Below are positions 26,107-52,680 of a stretch of 64,000 nt of DNA, piece after piece. This DNA comes from Candidatus Bathyarchaeota archaeon (GTDB taxonomy: Archaea > Thermoproteota > Bathyarchaeia > TCS64), in the NCBI GenBank assembly GCA_963771885.1, contig CAVYVF010000023.1, forward strand, positions 320,001 through 384,000, given 5' to 3'. Position 1 is the first letter of the stretch; each line of letters starts with the position of its first letter. Under the pieces are notes generated by a model. The model was not told where the DNA came from, searched no databases, and saw only the letters and a program-made list of their open reading frames with translations. Position numbers and translations under genes: made by a program.

Positions 26107-26601
26107 CTAGGCGAGCCTCATATTTCCCCGCTCGATGGCGGCTGCGCCGGTCCTGCTCATCTCCTCTATGCCGATGGGCGCGATCTTCTTGAGGAACTCA
26201 TCGATCTCGTCGGTGGGTCCCGTGACCTCTGCGATGAGTATGTCCGGCTCCACATCGAGGATGAGTCCGTGGTATGCGTTTACAGTGTTGACTGCCTCGA
26301 TCCTTGCGATCGGGTCCGATGTCTTCATTTTAATAAGCAGTAATTCCCTGCTGAGTGTCCTGATTGGGTCGAGGCGTTTCACCTTGACGACATCAACCAT
26401 CTTGTCGAGCTGTTCGACTATCTGGTTCAGTATCTTGCTCTCAGCGTCTACTACGACCGTCATTCTACTTAGCGGGCTACCCTCAACTGGGCCGACTGTG
26501 AGGCTCTGGATGTTGTAGCCTCGGCGCCGGAAGAGGTTGGCGACTTTGAAGAGGACTCCCGGTTTGTTTTCGACGAGGAAGCTGACTGTGTGTAGTGGCA
26601 T
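26107..26601 (-). CDS. ilvH: Acetolactate synthase small (regulatory) subunit, copy 1
   Basis: ACT domain VENKPGVL...LFRRRGYNIQSLTVG, QLDKMVDV, RELLLIK, SRTG. Confidence 0.93.
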   Translation of the reverse strand: MPLHTVSFLVENKPGVLFKVANLFRRRGYNIQSLTVGPVEGSPLSRMTVVVDAESKILNQIVEQLDKMVDVVKVKRLDPIRTLSRELLLIKMKTSDPIARIEAVNTVNAYHGLILDVEPDILIAEVTGPTDEIDEFLKKIAPIGIEEMSRTGAAAIERGNMRLA

Positions 26602-26602
26602 C

Positions 26603-28286
26603 TTAGACGCCTCCTAGGAGGATGTCCTTTAGCCCCATGCCCGGCGGGATCATAGGGTAGACGTTCTCCTCTGGGTCGATAGGGACCTCGATGACGGTCG
26701 TCTGCTTGTCTTTGATGCTCCTCTTTATGGCTGACTCTATCTGCTTCGTGGACTCTGCCTTGATACCTACGGCTCCGTAGGTCTCGGCGAGCTTGGCGAA
26801 GTCGGGGTGCTTCGGTCTCGTTATTGTGCTGTATCTGCGGTCGTAGAATAGGCGCTGCCACTGTGCGACCATGCCGAGGACGCCGTTGTTTAGTATGACG
26901 ACGGTTATGGGGAAACCCTCATCCACAGCGAGTGCGAGGTTGTTCTCCGTCATGGCGAAGCTGCCGTCGCCGCTGATGTTGAGGACGGGGAGGTCAGGGC
27001 GCGCTGCCTTGGCGCCGATGGCTGCTGGCGTCCCCCAGCCCATCGTACCGAGACCGCCACTTGTGAAGAACTCGCCGGCGCCGTGTACGTCGTAGTGCTG
27101 GGCCGCCCACATCTGGTGCTGGCCCACGTCGGTCACGACTATGCTCTTCGCGGGCATAGCTCTCCGTATCGCACGGATAACCTCTGGGCCAGAGAGTGGC
27201 GAGGTGTTGAGTGTGTTCGTCTGCGCCCGTAACTCAGCGATCCTCTTTATGAGCGCCTCGTCCTTCTTGCCGGTCTTCCTCTGCTGGGCGACCTTATCTC
27301 CTATCCCGCGTAGGGCGAGCCTTGCGTCGCCCGACTATCCTCGTGATGCTGTCGACGTTCTTGTCTATCTCACTCCTGTCGACGTCGACATGGATGATAC
27401 GAGCGTTCGGGGCGAAGCCCCTGAGCGAGCCGGTTGTGCGGTCGCTGAAGCGCGCGCCGACGACTAGGAGGACATCCGCCTCAGGGACCACATAATTCGC
27501 CTCGCAGCGCCCGTGCATCCCGCAGAGCCCGAGGCTGAGCGGGTGGTCGCTGGGTATGGCGCCCTTTCCCATGAGGCTGTGGGCTACGGGTGCCTGCAGC
27601 ATCTCGGCAAGCTCGATAAGCTCCGACGTTGCCCCTGCTGCGACGGCTCCTCCACCGGCGATGATGACGGGTCGGTGCGCCTTCGAAAGAAGCGTCGCGG
27701 CCCAGTGTATCTCCTGAGGGTTGGGCTCAGCGCTCGGGTGGTACCCGCGGAACTCGACCTTGTCCGGGAAGACCATCTCAGCCCTATCCGTCTGGGTGTC
27801 CTTTGGGATGTCGACTAGGACAGCGCCCTTCCTGCCGGTCGATGAGATGTGGAAGGCGGACTTGATCGCGTGCGGTATCTCCGCCGCCTCCATGACCTGT
27901 ATGTTGTGCTTAGTGACGGAGGCGGTGATGCCTATGATGTCGACCTCTTGGAAGGCGTCGGTTCCCACCATGCTGAGTGGGACCTGCCCCGTGAGGGCGA
28001 CGACGGGCGACGAGTCGAGCTGCGCCGTTGCGAGCCCAGTCACGATGTTGGTCGCGCCGGGTCCGCTGGTCACCTGCACGACGCCAGGTCTCCCGGAGAC
28101 GCGCGCGTAGCCGTCCGCCATGTGGGTGGAGCCCTGCTCGTGGACGCCGCCCACGTAGCGGATCTTCGACTTGAGCAGCTCGTCGCATATCGGGATAATA
28201 GCGGCGCCGGTTATACCGAACAGGTACTCGACGCCCTCCTTTTCAAGCGCCTTGACGTAAGCCTCGGCGCCAGTCATCTCAGGCAT
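26603..28286 (-). CDS. ilvB: Acetolactate synthase large subunit, copy 1; apparent +1 frameshift at about 27331
   Basis: HEQGSTHMADGYAR, TSGPGATN, DAFQEVD, DVGQHQMW, SGGLGTMG, GDGSF; removing one G from GTCGGGCGAC restores one ORF. Confidence 0.92.
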
Positions 28287-28481
28287 GCATGGAATCCTCC
28301 AGTTGTTGAATTTTCTAGGATCATTGATCCAGTTGTCTCTGACGGGAATCTAGGGACTAAGAATACGATTCCCCATTCAGCTCTCCCCCGCGCTCGGGGG
28401 CTCGACAAAGCAATACCCCATGTTCCATCCTCCCTTGCGGGATGTAAGCTAACCAAACTACGGATCGAATAAAAAGGTTTG
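28287..28481 (-). promoter_or_regulatory. Promoter and long structured 5' leader of ilvBH copy 1
   Basis: CAAACCTTTTTATTCG promoter, TACAT, two ATGGGGWATYGYWTT motifs 45 nt apart separated by a GC hairpin; same layout precedes ilvB copy 2. Confidence 0.7.
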
Positions 28482-28515
28482 GAGTAACAAAAACCCAACA
28501 AAATTTGACTTGTAG

Positions 28516-30144
28516 TCACTTCAGGTTTTTCAGGATCGATGAGATGAGACCCTCCTCGGTCTCAGCGTATAAAACGTGTATCTGGTAGAGTTCAGCGAGC
28601 CTAAGCTCCTCCGAATTAGGCGGTATTAGGGAGGCGAGGACGAATCTAGCCGACTTCAGGTCAGAATGAAGGCTACTTCTCTCCACTATCCTGTTGAAAA
28701 CGGAGCCGTCCGTCAGTACGTCTATGCAGAGGCTTGCCTCCATCTTCGGGTTCTTGGCGAACACGTCAAAGAGGTAGGACTTCGATGCACCTTGCAGTGT
28801 GCCCGGCACTTCGACGGACCATTTCTTGTCTTCTAGGGCGTCCCTGATCTTGGTGGCGAGCGTTTCCACCTTGATGCGTTGGGCGACCTGCTTCAACTTT
28901 TCCTGTATCGGCTGCCCGAGCTGCCAATAGTCCCTGAACATCAGGAGCATCGTCTCGACGTAGGCGCTGATGTTTGACCATACTGTGCGTTTCTGGAGAT
29001 CCATGTAGGGGACGTTCATCAGCGCCTCCTTTGCGTCGATGGTAAGGAGGATGAGGTCGGTCGAGGCGGCGTTCTCCGCGATGATCATGTCTTCGCCGGC
29101 GATGTTGGCGAGGTAGGGTAGGTTCTTCGGGTTAGTCTTTGTCAGCACCCTCGTCTTTACACCCTTGACCGTGATGTCATCGATCTCATCGAGAGGCAAC
29201 GGTAAGGCAGTCGAGTCGTTCGCCATGATATCAACTGCTTTGGTGGCTCTCCCTATCATGTCTCTGAAGAGCTTGGTGTACTCCTCGTTCGTCATGTAGG
29301 TGATTATTTCCTGACTTGGTTCCCCGGTCTGGATGGATTTTATCATGGACTCCGCCTCGGGGGCGAGGCTCCAGAGGGCGTCGAAGAATATCCTCATCGC
29401 CGCGACATAGCTCGAGGCGTTTGTCCAGAGCCCGGTGTCTGCCTTCGTCGTCATGCTCATCGAGTCGTCCATGGCGACTGTCGTGAGGGTCTCCCTCCCG
29501 TCGATTATTGCGAACCTTATTGGCGCCGAGAGGATCACGTGGCGGGCCTCGACCAGCCCCAGATATGGCTCGACATTTTTCAGGCCTTCCACATCGATCT
29601 GCGTGAGCACTCTAACCTTCTTCCCATTCTGAGTGAGCGCCTTGAACCTATCGTCAACCCCCCAGAGCGAGAGACGTGCTAGGTCACGCGTCGTCGTGAC
29701 GAGTCGCACCTCTTCCTCCGCCTTGTCACACATCTCCAGTAGGAGGTCGAAAACCTGCTGTCTGCCTTGGAATATTCGGAACTTGAACTCCTCGTCTGTT
29801 GGCTGTGCGGCACCACTTGCGAGGTTCTTCCACTCCTCAACGAGGGTACCGCTGTTCTGTTCGAGGTCCGTTAGGCGCTGCTTAAGCCCACCTTTCTGCC
29901 TGTTTAGTACGTCGATGAGTGGTGTCGCGACGTACCTTATGGGACGCCCAATGAGGCTTTGCACGAGCCCCTTGTCCTCGAGCGTCTTCAGGCTCCTGTA
30001 TGCCTTCATCCTGTTGAGGTTGAATCGGCGGGAGACTATGCGGGCGGGTGACGGCCCCATCGCCGAGAGGAAAACGTATAGCTCCGCTTCGTTTTTTTCA
30101 AGCCCAAGTTCCTGTAGGCGCTTCGTTAGCCTCTCGGTGGACAT
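28516..30144 (-). CDS. TrmB-family transcriptional regulator, extended multi-domain form
   Basis: N-terminal wHTH LQELGL...EAELYVFL...YRSLKTLEDKGLV...RPIRYVA; two internally repeated effector-like domains (AIIDGRETL...WTN...FFDALW; TIDAKEAL...WSN...FRDYW). Confidence 0.85.
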   Translation of the reverse strand: MSTERLTKRLQELGLEKNEAELYVFLSAMGPSPARIVSRRFNLNRMKAYRSLKTLEDKGLVQSLIGRPIRYVATPLIDVLNRQKGGLKQRLTDLEQNSGTLVEEWKNLASGAAQPTDEEFKFRIFQGRQQVFDLLLEMCDKAEEEVRLVTTTRDLARLSLWGVDDRFKALTQNGKKVRVLTQIDVEGLKNVEPYLGLVEARHVILSAPIRFAIIDGRETLTTVAMDDSMSMTTKADTGLWTNASSYVAAMRIFFDALWSLAPEAESMIKSIQTGEPSQEIITYMTNEEYTKLFRDMIGRATKAVDIMANDSTALPLPLDEIDDITVKGVKTRVLTKTNPKNLPYLANIAGEDMIIAENAASTDLILLTIDAKEALMNVPYMDLQKRTVWSNISAYVETMLLMFRDYWQLGQPIQEKLKQVAQRIKVETLATKIRDALEDKKWSVEVPGTLQGASKSYLFDVFAKNPKMEASLCIDVLTDGSVFNRIVERSSLHSDLKSARFVLASLIPPNSEELRLAELYQIHVLYAETEEGLISSILKNLK

Positions 30145-50162: not shown

Positions 50163-50246
50163 CGGGGCTCAACCTACGTGTTACAGACGGTCCGCGGGGG
50201 TGTTAAGCGTAGCGCAGCGGCGTTGTGTGTACCGTGAATATTTTCA

Positions 50247-50483
50247 CAAACCTTTTATTCGGAGGTGCGGCTGTTCCCCCTACATACCGTTGGAGATTGG
50301 TGTTATGGGGTATCGCTTTATCATGGCCGCCGAGTGGAGGGTGGCGTAGATGGGGAATTGCTTTATTCGGTAGTTCAAGCCCAGCGAAGGACTCTCAAAT
50401 AGCGGTTTGGAAACGTTTCTCGACACAGGAACCATCCTCGACAGGGATGGGTTCCCGATACTATGCCTCGGAGGTGCAAGCGC
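50247..50483 (+). promoter_or_regulatory. Promoter and long structured 5' leader of ilvBHC
   Basis: CAAACCTTTTATTCG, TACAT, ATGGGGTATCGCTTT (50305) and ATGGGGAATTGCTTT (50350) with a GCCGCC/GGTGGC hairpin between; further hairpin at 50428-50456 before the SD. Confidence 0.7.
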
Positions 50484-52176
50484 TTGGTTGAGATGCCCGG
50501 TACTCGTGCCGTCGTAAGGTCACTCGAATTGGAGGGCGTCAAGCACCTCTTCGGGCTTCCAGGCGGCGTCGTAATCCCGCTTTGCGACGAGATGTTGAAG
50601 GCGGACTTCCGCTTCATACTCGCGCGCCATGAGCAGGGTGCGGCGCACATGGCGGACGGCTACGCGCGGGCCACTGGCGGCGTCGGCGTCTGCCTCGCGA
50701 CATCGGGGCCAGGCGCCACGAACCTCGTCACAGGCGTCGCGACTGCGAACATCGACTCAAGCGCAGTCGTCGCACTCACGGGGCAGGTCACACGCGCCAC
50801 GATTGGTACAGATGCCTTCCAGGAAGTCGACATCATCGGCTGCAGCGCCTCCGTCACCAAGTACAACATGCAGGTCAGGAAGGCGAGCGAGATTCCACGC
50901 GCCGTCAAGTCGGCTTTCCGCATCGCCTCGACGGGTCGCAGGGGCGCGGTGCTCCTCGACCTACCCAAGGACGTAACAACGGACGTCGAGGACATCGTCT
51001 TCCCCGAGAACGTTAAACTCAGGGGCTACCGCCCTAACCACCAACCCGACCCGCGTGAGGTCGAGTGGGCGTCGACGCTCCTCGCCAAGGCTCAGAGGCC
51101 GGTCGTCGTCGCGGGTGGAGGCGTGATCAACGCTGGGGCGACACGTGAACTGGTGGCTCTCAGCGAGTACCTAATGGCTCCGACGGCGACCACCCTCATG
51201 GGCAAGGGCGCGTTCCCCGCCGACCACCCGCTCAGCCTCGGGCTCTGCGGGATGCATGGAACTCAGGCGGCGAACAACCTCGTCCCCGAGGCGGACGTCC
51301 TCCTCATAGTGGGGGCACGCCTCAGCGACAGGACAACTGGCGCGGTGAAGAGCTTCGCCCCCAACGCCAAGGTCATACACCTCGACATCGACAAGAGCGA
51401 GATAGACAAGAACGTGGAGACGGTGACGCGCGTCGTCGGAGACGCTGCCCTCGGGCTCCGCGGGCTCCTCTACAACGTCAGCAAACTCCGCGCGCAGGGC
51501 GACGCGGGCGCACAGTGGAGCAAGAAGGTCTCCGAGTTCAGGTGCCAGGTCCAGCCAAACGGGAACGGGCACAAGTCCGGCTACCTGCGCGCCCCCGACG
51601 TAGTCAAGACCATCCGCAAGACGCTGCCCCGCGAGTCCGTCGTCACGACGGAGGTCGGGCAATGCCAGATGTGGGCGGCGCTACACTACGACGCATACGA
51701 CCCGCGCACGTTCTTCACAAGCGGTGGCCTCGGCACGATGGGCTGGGGCTTCCCCGCAGCAATCGGCGTCAAGGCTGCTCGCCCGGACGTACCCGTCCTC
51801 GACATCGCGGGCGACGGCAGCTTCGGCATGACCGAGAACAACATGGCAACCAGCATCGAGGAGGGGCTCCCCGTCATCGTCGTCGTGCTCAACAACCAGA
51901 TGCTCGGCATGGTCGCACAGTGGCAGCGCCTCTTCTTCGACCACCGCTACTCCGCGGTCAAGCTCAAGGGCAACCCCGACATGGTCAAGCTCGCTGAGGC
52001 GTACGGCGCCGAGGGAGTCAGGGTCGACACCCTCGAGGGGCTCGAGGCGGCGATACAGACGCGCTACGAAGAGCGACGTCTCAACCGTTATCGACGTCCC
52101 CATCGACCCGGAGGAGAACGTCTACCCAATAGTGCCGCCCGGCGCGGGGCTCAAAGACGCGCTACTGGAGGCATAA
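50484..52176 (+). CDS. ilvB: Acetolactate synthase large subunit, copy 2; apparent +1 frameshift at about 52056
   Basis: GLPGG, RHEQGAAHMADGYAR, TSGPGATN, EVGQCQMW, GDGSF; true C-terminus IDVPIDPEENVYPIVPPG in the shifted frame; SD GGAGGTG before TTG. Confidence 0.93.
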
Positions 52177-52179
52177 GAG

Positions 52180-52680
52180 ATGAGCGAGAGACACGTAGTC
52201 GCGTTCCTCGTCGAGAACAGGCCAGGGGTGCTATTCAACATAAGCAACCTGTTCCGGCGCAAGAACTTCAACATACACAGCATCACCGCCGGCACCGTCC
52301 TCGACGATGACACCGTGAGGATCACAATCGTCGTCCAGGCGGACGCCCACGGAGTCAACCAGGTAGTCGAGCAGCTCGACAAGATGGTCGACGTAGTTGA
52401 GGTCAAGCGACTCGACCCGCTCCGCACGGTCAACAGGGAACTGATGCTGGTCAAGCTCACTACAACTGACCCGATGGCACGGGAGGAGGCGCTCAAGTTG
52501 GTAAACGATTACCATGGGCTCATCCTGAACATCGAGCCGGACAACCTTATAGCCGAGGTCACTGGTGAGTCTGAGGATGTAGACGCCTTCCTCGAGGCAG
52601 TCAAGCCCATAGGGGTCGAGGAGGTCTCGAGGACAGGAGTGACAGCCGTCGAGAAGGGGCGGCTCAAGCTGGAGAAGTGA
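52180..52680 (+). CDS. ilvH: Acetolactate synthase small subunit, copy 2
   Basis: VENRPGVL...LFRRKNFNIHSI, QLDKMVDV, RELMLVK, SRTG. Confidence 0.93.
   Translation: MSERHVVAFLVENRPGVLFNISNLFRRKNFNIHSITAGTVLDDDTVRITIVVQADAHGVNQVVEQLDKMVDVVEVKRLDPLRTVNRELMLVKLTTTDPMAREEALKLVNDYHGLILNIEPDNLIAEVTGESEDVDAFLEAVKPIGVEEVSRTGVTAVEKGRLKLEK

Follow-up and report, generated by a model that had tools for sequence, protein, structure and literature searches.

What does the leader in front of an archaeal ilvB gene respond to, and how does it act on the gene? The question is raised by a 64,000-nucleotide (nt) stretch of a Candidatus Bathyarchaeota genome (hereafter the window; contig CAVYVF010000023.1, positions 320,001 to 384,000), which holds two copies of ilvB, the gene of the acetolactate synthase large subunit. 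An earlier note on this DNA had proposed a novel cis-regulatory leader upstream of copy 1. By comparing this leader with its counterparts in related genomes we arrive at an answer that we consider probable: the leader would be an amino-acid-sensing programmed +1 ribosomal frameshift site, at which the ribosome changes frame at a “hungry” codon, i.e. a codon whose charged transfer RNA (tRNA) is scarce. Its building block is a short cassette with the consensus AUG GGG WAU YGY WUU, followed by one sensor codon, which before ilvB encodes Val, Leu or Ile.

Every element that had been claimed upstream of ilvB copy 1 was found by direct reading of the minus strand between 28481 and 28350. The leader begins with CAAACCTTTTTATTCG (28481-28466), which resembles an archaeal promoter with B recognition element (BRE) and TATA box and to which we assign a putative promoter role. 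About 20 nt past the TATA-like box lies TACAT (28446-28442), the putative initiator or transcription start, which has the same distance in the leader of copy 2. It is followed by a small hairpin, UCCC-GCAA-GGGA (28442-28431), that overlaps the Shine-Dalgarno (SD) tract GGGAGG (28434-28429) of a first mini open reading frame (mini-ORF 1, 28421-28377). Mini-ORF 1 encodes MGYCFVEPPSAGES, is opened by the motif ATGGGGTATTGCTTT at 28421 and starts at the nucleotide level with ATGGGGTATTGCTTTGTC. Its cassette reads AUG GGG UAU UGC UUU, and the sensor codon is GUC (Val, 28406-28404). A second hairpin, CCCCCG-AGCG-CGGGGG (28400-28385), is located within mini-ORF 1, and its 3' arm forms the SD tract of mini-ORF 2 (28376-28350, MGNRILSP). 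The latter is opened by ATGGGGAATCGTATT at 28376, starts with ATGGGGAATCGTATTCTT and carries the cassette AUG GGG AAU CGU AUU, with Ile as codon 5 and CUU (Leu, 28361-28359) as sensor. The UGA stop of mini-ORF 1 directly joins the AUG of mini-ORF 2 (UGA-AUG), and the two motif starts are 45 nt apart. If the sequence is read from base 2 of mini-ORF 1 (28420), i.e. in the +1 frame, 48 sense codons (WGIALSSPRARGRAEWGIVFLVPRFPSETTGSMILENSTTGGFHACLR) run through mini-ORF 2 and the spacer up to a UGA at 28276-28274. This stop overlaps the second in-frame ATG of ilvB (28277, ATGA), 10 nt past the first ATG at 28286.

The same layout had been reported at 50247-50373, and it is present there, on the plus strand, in front of ilvB copy 2. 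A promoter-like CAAACCTTTTATTCGG (50247-50262) and TACAT (50281-50285) precede two motifs at 50305 and 50350, again 45 nt apart. Mini-ORF 1 of this leader (MGYRFIMAAEWRVA, 50305-50349) has the sensor AUC (Ile, 50320-50322), and its UAG stop joins the next AUG. Mini-ORF 2 (MGNCFIR, 50350-50373) has the sensor AUU (Ile, 50365-50367). Read in the original frame (frame 0), the four mini-ORFs of the window comprise 14, 8, 14 and 7 codons. The +1 frame of copy 2 (50306-50491) is open for 61 sense codons and ends with a UGA at 50489-50491, one base before the ATG of ilvB at 50493; the Met encoded there is residue 11 of the long ORF, and with it the family model starts.

Such cassettes are not confined to the two ilvB leaders. 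The shared 15-mer motif ATGGGGWATYGYWTT matches four times in the window, with 0.63 matches expected and four reached in 1 of 100 shuffles. Seven matches are found in the whole genome and none for the reversed pattern. Of the three further sites, two precede ilvA (threonine dehydratase), with a distance of 42 nt between their cassettes, and one precedes valS. Among 41 related genomes, this one included, 30 contain the motif, among them all 24 of the same family, while the control gave two matches in all. Class-wide, 174 of 401 genomes searched have a match. By coded family, the genomes with a match number 69 of 70 in f1 (the family of this genome), 61 of 104 in f11, 19 of 25 in f13, 3 of 3 in f18, 5 of 10 in f23, 2 of 59 in f26 and 0 of 14 in f9; these are counts of genomes searched, and a low or zero count is no proof of absence. 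With one genome for each species, 185,579 prokaryote species were also scanned for pairs of cassettes separated by 24-33 nt. This yielded 77 stretches, 72 of them titled Candidatus Bathyarchaeota or Bathyarchaeia, and in 76 of the 77 the start-to-start spacing was 42 or 45 nt, both multiples of three. When the four leaders of this genome were aligned, the mean column identity was 57% and the only invariant columns were the promoter T-tract, the G's of the SD, the cassette and the CC/GG of the hairpin. The excess of the motif over the controls, its recurrence in relatives and the confinement of the invariant columns bear out the claim that the similarity goes beyond chance or the remnant of a duplication.

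All seven cassettes of the genome are located on contig C23 (G+C 0.577). The G+C content ranges from 0.44 to 0.58 over the 23 contigs of the assembly, and the low-GC contigs may stem from another organism.

To see what the cassettes read, we fetched 204 loci, which gave 165 distinct leaders, and classed the downstream genes by blast against NCBIfam-named references. Codon 6, the sensor, was Val in 17 of 17 cases before valS, Trp in 7 of 7 before trpE and Ile in 36 of 36 before genes of the LeuA/CimA synthase family. For leaders of ilvA all 12 sensors were Ile, and for those of ilvB all 156 were Ile, Leu or Val. Thus, a codon cognate to the downstream gene stood at position 6 in all 228 sensors from 149 leaders before amino-acid genes, either as a single codon or as Ile-Leu (MGNRIL), and never as a run. 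Before the synthase, synonymous codons alternate (18 ATT, 18 ATC) while the encoded amino acid remains constant. The two positions of tandem leaders are also fixed: for the ilvB type of copy 1 the first sensor is Val in 29 of 29 leaders and the second is Leu in 29 of 29. One ORF of copy 1 has Val and the other Ile-Leu, so that its control would be multivalent, as in attenuators. Copy 2 reads Ile twice.

The cassettes carry the signals of translated ORFs. The abutting mini-ORFs with G-rich SD tracts that had been described for the window are real, and an SD-like tract occurs at -18 to -4 in 208 of 227 cassettes, with about 70% G at -13 to -9. The 3' end of the 16S ribosomal RNA of this genome, GGAUCACCUCCU, ends in CCUCCU. 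Frame 0 stops after 6-19 codons in all leaders of amino-acid genes. A conserved cassette with a sensor codon and, as described below, an open +1 frame points to decoding by the ribosome and not to binding of a small molecule.

The remaining 16 of the 165 leaders, which lie before or inside unrelated genes and carry assorted codons, were dropped from the sensor table. We regard them as background because their number fits the reversed-pattern control (about a dozen hits in 401 genomes). Among these rejected hits are a cassette-like site before htpX (G035), where frame 0 has 58 codons, the sites inside an aminopeptidase gene (L115) and before a transposase (L114), and others in which the +1 frame is closed. 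A rule by which UUU would precede purine-initial and AUU pyrimidine-initial sensors is broken by seven UUU_CUC cases. Two genomes of one genus carry, on AT-rich contigs, a cassette with Pro as codon 6 (MGNRIP; L022:1501-2269 and L053:428-710, both plus strand), followed in the +1 frame by a methyltransferase dependent on S-adenosylmethionine; we consider it a candidate switch at most.

The second line of evidence is the +1 frame itself. Leaders of ilvB, ilvA and valS are followed by a separate gene, and we call them coupling-type leaders; 66 of them come from the first 86 loci, and a larger set comprises 106. Counted from the last cassette, the +1 frame was open for 32-68 codons in all 66. Relative to a start codon of the long ORF its stop lay at -17 to +13 nt, again in 66 of 66. 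The +2 frame reached the main start in none of them. Over the 106 leaders the commonest offsets of the stop were +4 (UGA-N-AUG, 58 leaders) and -1 (AUGA overlap, 23 leaders). The spacers form 20 clusters at below 65% identity, and the product of the probabilities that shuffled spacers stay open is 10^-19.1, an approximate value that treats the clusters as independent. An upstream start codon in the +1 frame was missing in 38 of the 66 leaders, including 17 of 17 before valS. Initiation at the main gene looks weak: few main starts have an SD-like tract of their own (28 of 106; for ilvB 11 of 82), and the start of ilvA is TTG in 7 of 7 cases.

In a second type of leader the +1 frame is the frame of the enzyme. 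The conserved N-terminus of the LeuA/CimA-type synthase (..RFLDTTLRDGEQ) is found in the +1 frame 37 nt past the cassette AUG in 14 of 14 leaders of a first set and 22 of 22 of a second set. Frame 0 of these leaders has 6-10 codons, e.g. MGYRFI. Between the nearest upstream +1 stop, which often lies 2-14 nt before the cassette, and the synthase domain there is no ATG, GTG or TTG in the +1 frame in 10 of the 14 and 12 of the 22 leaders (22 of 36). About 26-49 positions of the family model are lost when the ORF is begun at the next canonical start. Cassettes with a Trp codon (MGNRIW and MGYRIW) are fused in the same manner to TrpE in 7 of 7 cases, with TrpE scoring above the curated cut-off of TIGR01820. 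Because the +1 frame is that of synthase and TrpE themselves, neither enzyme would be made without a shift. In G037, a genome from a different family that lacks the exact motif, the variant ATGGGGTGTTATTTTATT-TAG (MGCYFI and stop) is fused in +1 to the synthase; ordinary start codons are found in its synthase paralogue and in the homologues of two other genomes.

The trpE fusions (MG[NY][RC]IW) are those of L095, L098, L099, L108, L122, L123 and L124. In six of these seven loci trpE is followed, with an ATGA or TTGA overlap, by an ORF of 193-196 codons that we take as trpG by size and position. A tblastn search of the present genome (92% complete) with the synthase and TrpE products found no trpE; the single LeuA-family gene that it recovered lies on contig C7, starts with an ordinary ATG and has no cassette.

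How could such a leader work? We propose that ribosomes initiate at the cassette AUG. As long as the charged sensor tRNA is plentiful, codon 6 would be decoded, the mini-ORF would end a few codons on and ilvB would be poorly translated; after mini-ORF 1 the ribosome would restart at the abutting mini-ORF 2, where a second amino acid is tested. Once the charged sensor tRNA becomes scarce, the A site would stay empty, and the peptidyl-tRNA on UUU or AUU could re-pair one base downstream on UUN. The sequence fits such slippage, with UUU or AUU in the P site and UUN as the +1 codon that overlaps it. Reading on in +1 through the spacer, the ribosome would terminate on or next to the ilvB AUG (AUGA in copy 1, UGA-G-AUG in copy 2) and be handed over to ilvB by translational coupling. 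For the fused type (synthase, trpE) the +1 shift itself would make the enzyme. Two cassettes in phase would provide two chances and two sensors and thereby a multivalent control of ilvB. The cassette also has an internal GGGG, 6 nt ahead of the shift codon, whose role may resemble that of the SD stimulator in bacterial prfB. The position matrix of all cassettes further has NNY codons of split boxes at all of codons 3-6 in frame 0; the sensor, too, is NNY unless it encodes Trp. The mechanism may also draw on weak wobble pairing in the E and P sites.

Put more generally, we lean, though only slightly, towards a portable cassette in Bathyarchaeia (SD, AUG GGG WAU YGY WUU, sensor codon) that works as a ribosome-only sensor and turns a shortage of charged tRNA into a +1 frameshift. 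The shift would either create an enzyme (CimA/LeuA-type synthase, TrpE) or deliver ribosomes to one (ilvB, ilvA, valS). A single codon change would re-program the specificity, and two in-phase cassettes would form an OR gate for two amino acids.

Several points weigh against the frameshift proposal, which is derived from sequence comparison. After a +1 slip the P-site tRNA keeps only two of its three pairs (UUU to UUA or UUG). The spacing from GGGG to the shift codon is 6 nt, compared with 3 nt in prfB, and the role given to GGGG is a guess. Cassette positions 7, 10 and 13, which are first codon positions in frame 0 and third positions in +1 (WGI[AV][LF]), vary, and this variation would also fit a shift earlier than codon 6. 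Some upstream +1-frame start codon, at varying places, does occur in 28 of the 66 coupling-type leaders. In Val leaders the +1 frame has a UUG at +13 with GGGG 7 nt upstream, which could serve as an independent start, though not so in Ile or Trp leaders. The first-cassette +1 frame of one leader (L066) closes after 10 codons, and the synthase frames of L009 and L090 are interrupted. The ilvB copy 1 has a good SD of its own (GGAGGA, 8 nt before the ATG at 28286), so that some frameshift-independent expression is likely. Finally, kinship inflates the counts given above: the independent events are about six leader classes plus 20 spacer clusters. Two variants of the slip itself were considered and set aside. 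A 4-nt hop from UUU to UUU fits only AUU-U contexts, and transcriptional slippage is judged unlikely because the T run is only 3-4 long.

The rival that survives best, though we think it unlikely, is a classic leader-peptide switch without frameshift. By stalling at the sensor, the ribosome would change the fold of the leader RNA, e.g. open the CCCCCG/CGGGGG hairpin. The next ribosome-binding site would then become accessible, or transcription would be kept from terminating, as in the bacterial ilv, leu and trp attenuators. The mini-ORFs are indeed short, SD-led and equipped with cognate codons. With a threshold of at most -8 kcal/mol minimum free energy in the 36 nt after the sensor, a stable hairpin follows in 72 of 74 first mini-ORFs of ilvB, 5 of 5 of ilvA and 17 of 17 of valS. 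Where two mini-ORFs stand in tandem, the 3' arm of the hairpin doubles as the SD of mini-ORF 2, and its 5' arm would be hidden under a ribosome waiting with codon 6 in the A site. However, such a hairpin follows only 2 of 79 second mini-ORFs and none of the 43 fused leaders (0 of 36 synthase, 0 of 7 trpE). The sensor is a single codon and not a run. A T run of five or more is the usual archaeal termination signal; it was found in only 5 of 106 spacers. Dinucleotide shuffles fold as well as the whole leaders of the window (z = 0.44 and 0.04). With these T runs, z values and hairpin-free fused leaders, no terminator/antiterminator pair with U tract was recognized. Above all, the switch accounts neither for a +1 frame that reaches the main start unbroken in all 66 leaders nor for the encoding of synthase and TrpE in +1, often without any other start codon.

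Still less probable, in our view, is recoding or unusual initiation without amino-acid sensing. It would consist either of a constitutive early +1 shift, e.g. on the G run, or of independent initiation of the +1 ORF, for which the frame-0 mini-ORF would be only a ribosome sink. The third-position variation in WGI[AV][LF] and the UUG at +13 of Val leaders, from which the +1 ORF could start, speak for it. Ile and Trp leaders, however, have no start codon at +13, and many leaders have a +1 stop 2-14 nt before the cassette and no start after it. Moreover, codon 6 tracks the amino acid of the downstream gene in all 228 sensors of the 149 leaders, through synonymous changes. Such tracking would be meaningless if frame 0 were left before codon 6.

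The earlier note had itself looked in another direction, towards an RNA-level control element. Its part concerning a conserved cis-regulatory leader of branched-chain amino-acid genes stands; the part that would make the leader a folded RNA binding a ligand or a tRNA found no support. The regions 28200-28520 and 50220-50540 had no Rfam match at E<=1, and over the whole window Rfam 15 at gathering score returned only one tRNA. RNAalifold on 14 valS leaders kept four pairs, three of them invariant C-G pairs of the CCC/GGG stem, without informative covariation; the underlying MAFFT alignment is poor in the spacer, and structure located there could escape. We therefore hold it to be very improbable that a protein, tRNA or metabolite binds the 15-nt motif (as an operator, T-box-like RNA or riboswitch). 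The conservation of the motif at the nucleotide level (Gly is always GGG in the hits), its regulon-like occurrence before four operons and the gene with TrmB-like helix-turn-helix (HTH) adjoining ilvB copy 1 would suit such binding. However, GGG at codon 2 was fixed by the search pattern itself, neither Rfam matches nor excess folding nor covariation were seen, and the AUG with which the motif always begins is SD-led. Tandem copies stay in phase with each other (42 or 45 nt in 76 of 77 stretches), and a binding site would have no need of an open +1 frame.

A further spacer element, GCGGAC-AAGGUUUUAAGG...GUCCGC, recurs in valS leaders from several genera, where it lies between the mini-ORF and the valS start (G000 contig C23 around 869400-869480, minus strand; L007, L029, L039, L041, L086 and others). 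By eye, GCGGAC and GUCCGC form a possible long-range stem.

RNA data touch the copy 1 leader at a few places. None of the RNA runs contained half of the sampled words, and six contained small shares; four of these six were mapped. Three RNA-library contigs cover parts of the region: X18 (245 nt, 10 differences) spans 28167-28411 and includes the 5' end of ilvB, mini-ORF 2 and part of mini-ORF 1, X16 (170 nt, 2 differences) spans 28149-28307, and X15 (199 nt, 6 differences) spans 28454-28650. These contigs are those of relatives, may include carried-over DNA and show no transcript ends, and the parts that they leave uncovered mean nothing.

The gene taken to be regulated by the leader of copy 1 extends over 26603-28286 (minus strand). 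NCBIfam classes both ilvB copies as the large subunit of the biosynthetic acetolactate synthase. An ilvN follows each of them (at 26107-26601 in the case of copy 1), and copy 2 is also followed by ilvC. Near 27300 a frame change splits copy 1 into two ORFs of 330 and 184 amino acids, both matched by TIGR00118. The protein of relatives is intact with about 560 amino acids, and the break marks either a pseudogene or an assembly error. The ORF of copy 2 (50463-52310, plus strand) extends about 78 amino acids past the end of the family model and overlaps ilvN (52180-52680), which may reflect a frame error near its 3' end. Upstream of copy 1 a protein of 542 amino acids with an N-terminal TrmB-like HTH (28516-30144, minus strand) ends 35 nt before the ilvB promoter; it could be a transcription factor.

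The proposed amino-acid-sensing frameshift has close relatives among known recoding systems, the closest being that of bacterial prfB, which encodes release factor 2 (RF2). Its site, ..GGGGGUAUCUUUGAC, resembles GGGGUAUCGCUUU of the cassette. Both have a short zero-frame ORF that ends just past the shift site and, on the 5' side of that site, a G-rich SD-like tract; in both, the functional product, or access to it, lies in the +1 frame. A slow A site as sensor and a peptidyl-tRNA that re-pairs on an overlapping +1 codon belong to prfB and would also belong to the cassette (for prfB as described in the part of a review used here, PMC5009743). The same part of the review states that a 5' SD stimulates the RF2 shift and that a short zero-frame ORF can be sensor and effector at once (PMC5009743). 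Unlike in prfB, where a stop codon reads RF2, a sense codon of the cassette would read the supply of charged tRNA. The cassette is located at leader codons 1-6 with its SD-like tract 6 nt and not 3 nt from the shift codon, it is modular over several genes and amino acids, and it is archaeal without homology to prfB. For the leaders of the window the output would be translational coupling to a separate gene and no fused product.

A +1 P-site slip driven by slow arrival of aminoacyl-tRNA in the A site, as assumed for the cassette, is described for Ty1 (CUU_AGG_C) and for starved Escherichia coli, a slow A site favouring +1 shifts (PMC5009743, in the part used here). In Ty1, unlike in the cassette, a constitutively rare tRNA sets a fixed Gag:Pol ratio. 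Bacterial hungry-codon shifting is known as an error, whereas the cassette would be a dedicated feedback switch. Such “hungry codon” frameshifting in starved E. coli is reportedly known from Gallant's work.

The attenuators of the bacterial branched-chain and tryptophan operons (ivbL-ilvBN, ilvL, leuL, trpL) share with the leaders of the window a tiny translated leader ORF before a biosynthetic operon, codons for the end product and the ribosome as sensor. The cassette differs in that it has one sensor codon at a fixed position and neither a terminator/antiterminator pair nor a U tract, that its conserved feature is the open +1 frame and that it also occurs before valS. The T-box of Firmicutes is likewise one family of cis-elements with single-codon specificity that ties synthetase and biosynthetic genes to tRNA charging. 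Yet the T-box is a large folded untranslated RNA that binds uncharged tRNA directly, while the cassette has no Rfam hit and no excess structure and its codon lies in an SD-led ORF.

For archaea little of this kind has been described. The fucA1 gene of Saccharolobus solfataricus is the sole programmed frameshift, in -1 direction, reported for cellular archaeal genes in the part used here of a 2021 review on archaeal recoding (PMC8211752). Unlike the cassette, fucA1 shifts by -1 on a slippery heptamer (A-AAA-AAT) inside the gene, has no known sensing role and is a single gene and not a family. Likely +1 frameshifting is mentioned for one haloarchaeal virus in the cited part of the 2016 review, which also knows of no hungry-codon frameshifting used for starvation-specific trans-frame proteins (PMC5009743). 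The earlier note's statement that the element was not known to be described in archaea agrees with our search: frameshift-based amino-acid sensing was not found in the literature searched, which did not cover subscription journals and included the said part of PMC8211752.

The cassette also bears on annotation. The mini-ORFs are unannotated, and in many Bathyarchaeia gene calling would yield genes for the LeuA/CimA-type synthase and TrpE that are N-terminally truncated or broken. The sensor codon offers a free functional label for the downstream gene; an Ile sensor before a LeuA-family gene, for instance, argues for a citramalate synthase. The cassette could furthermore be used as a compact, programmable amino-acid biosensor.

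How archaea adjust the expression of their biosynthetic and tRNA-synthetase genes to the supply of amino acids is, to our knowledge, little understood; as far as we know they lack T-boxes, and we know of no attenuator shown in archaea. If the frameshift reading is true, hungry-codon frameshifting would for the first time be seen in natural use for regulation, and a programmed +1 frameshift for the first time in a cellular archaeal gene. The gaps stated in the used parts of the two reviews (PMC5009743, PMC8211752) would then be filled by a simple device, and Bathyarchaeia would possess in it an archaeal functional counterpart of T-boxes and attenuators.

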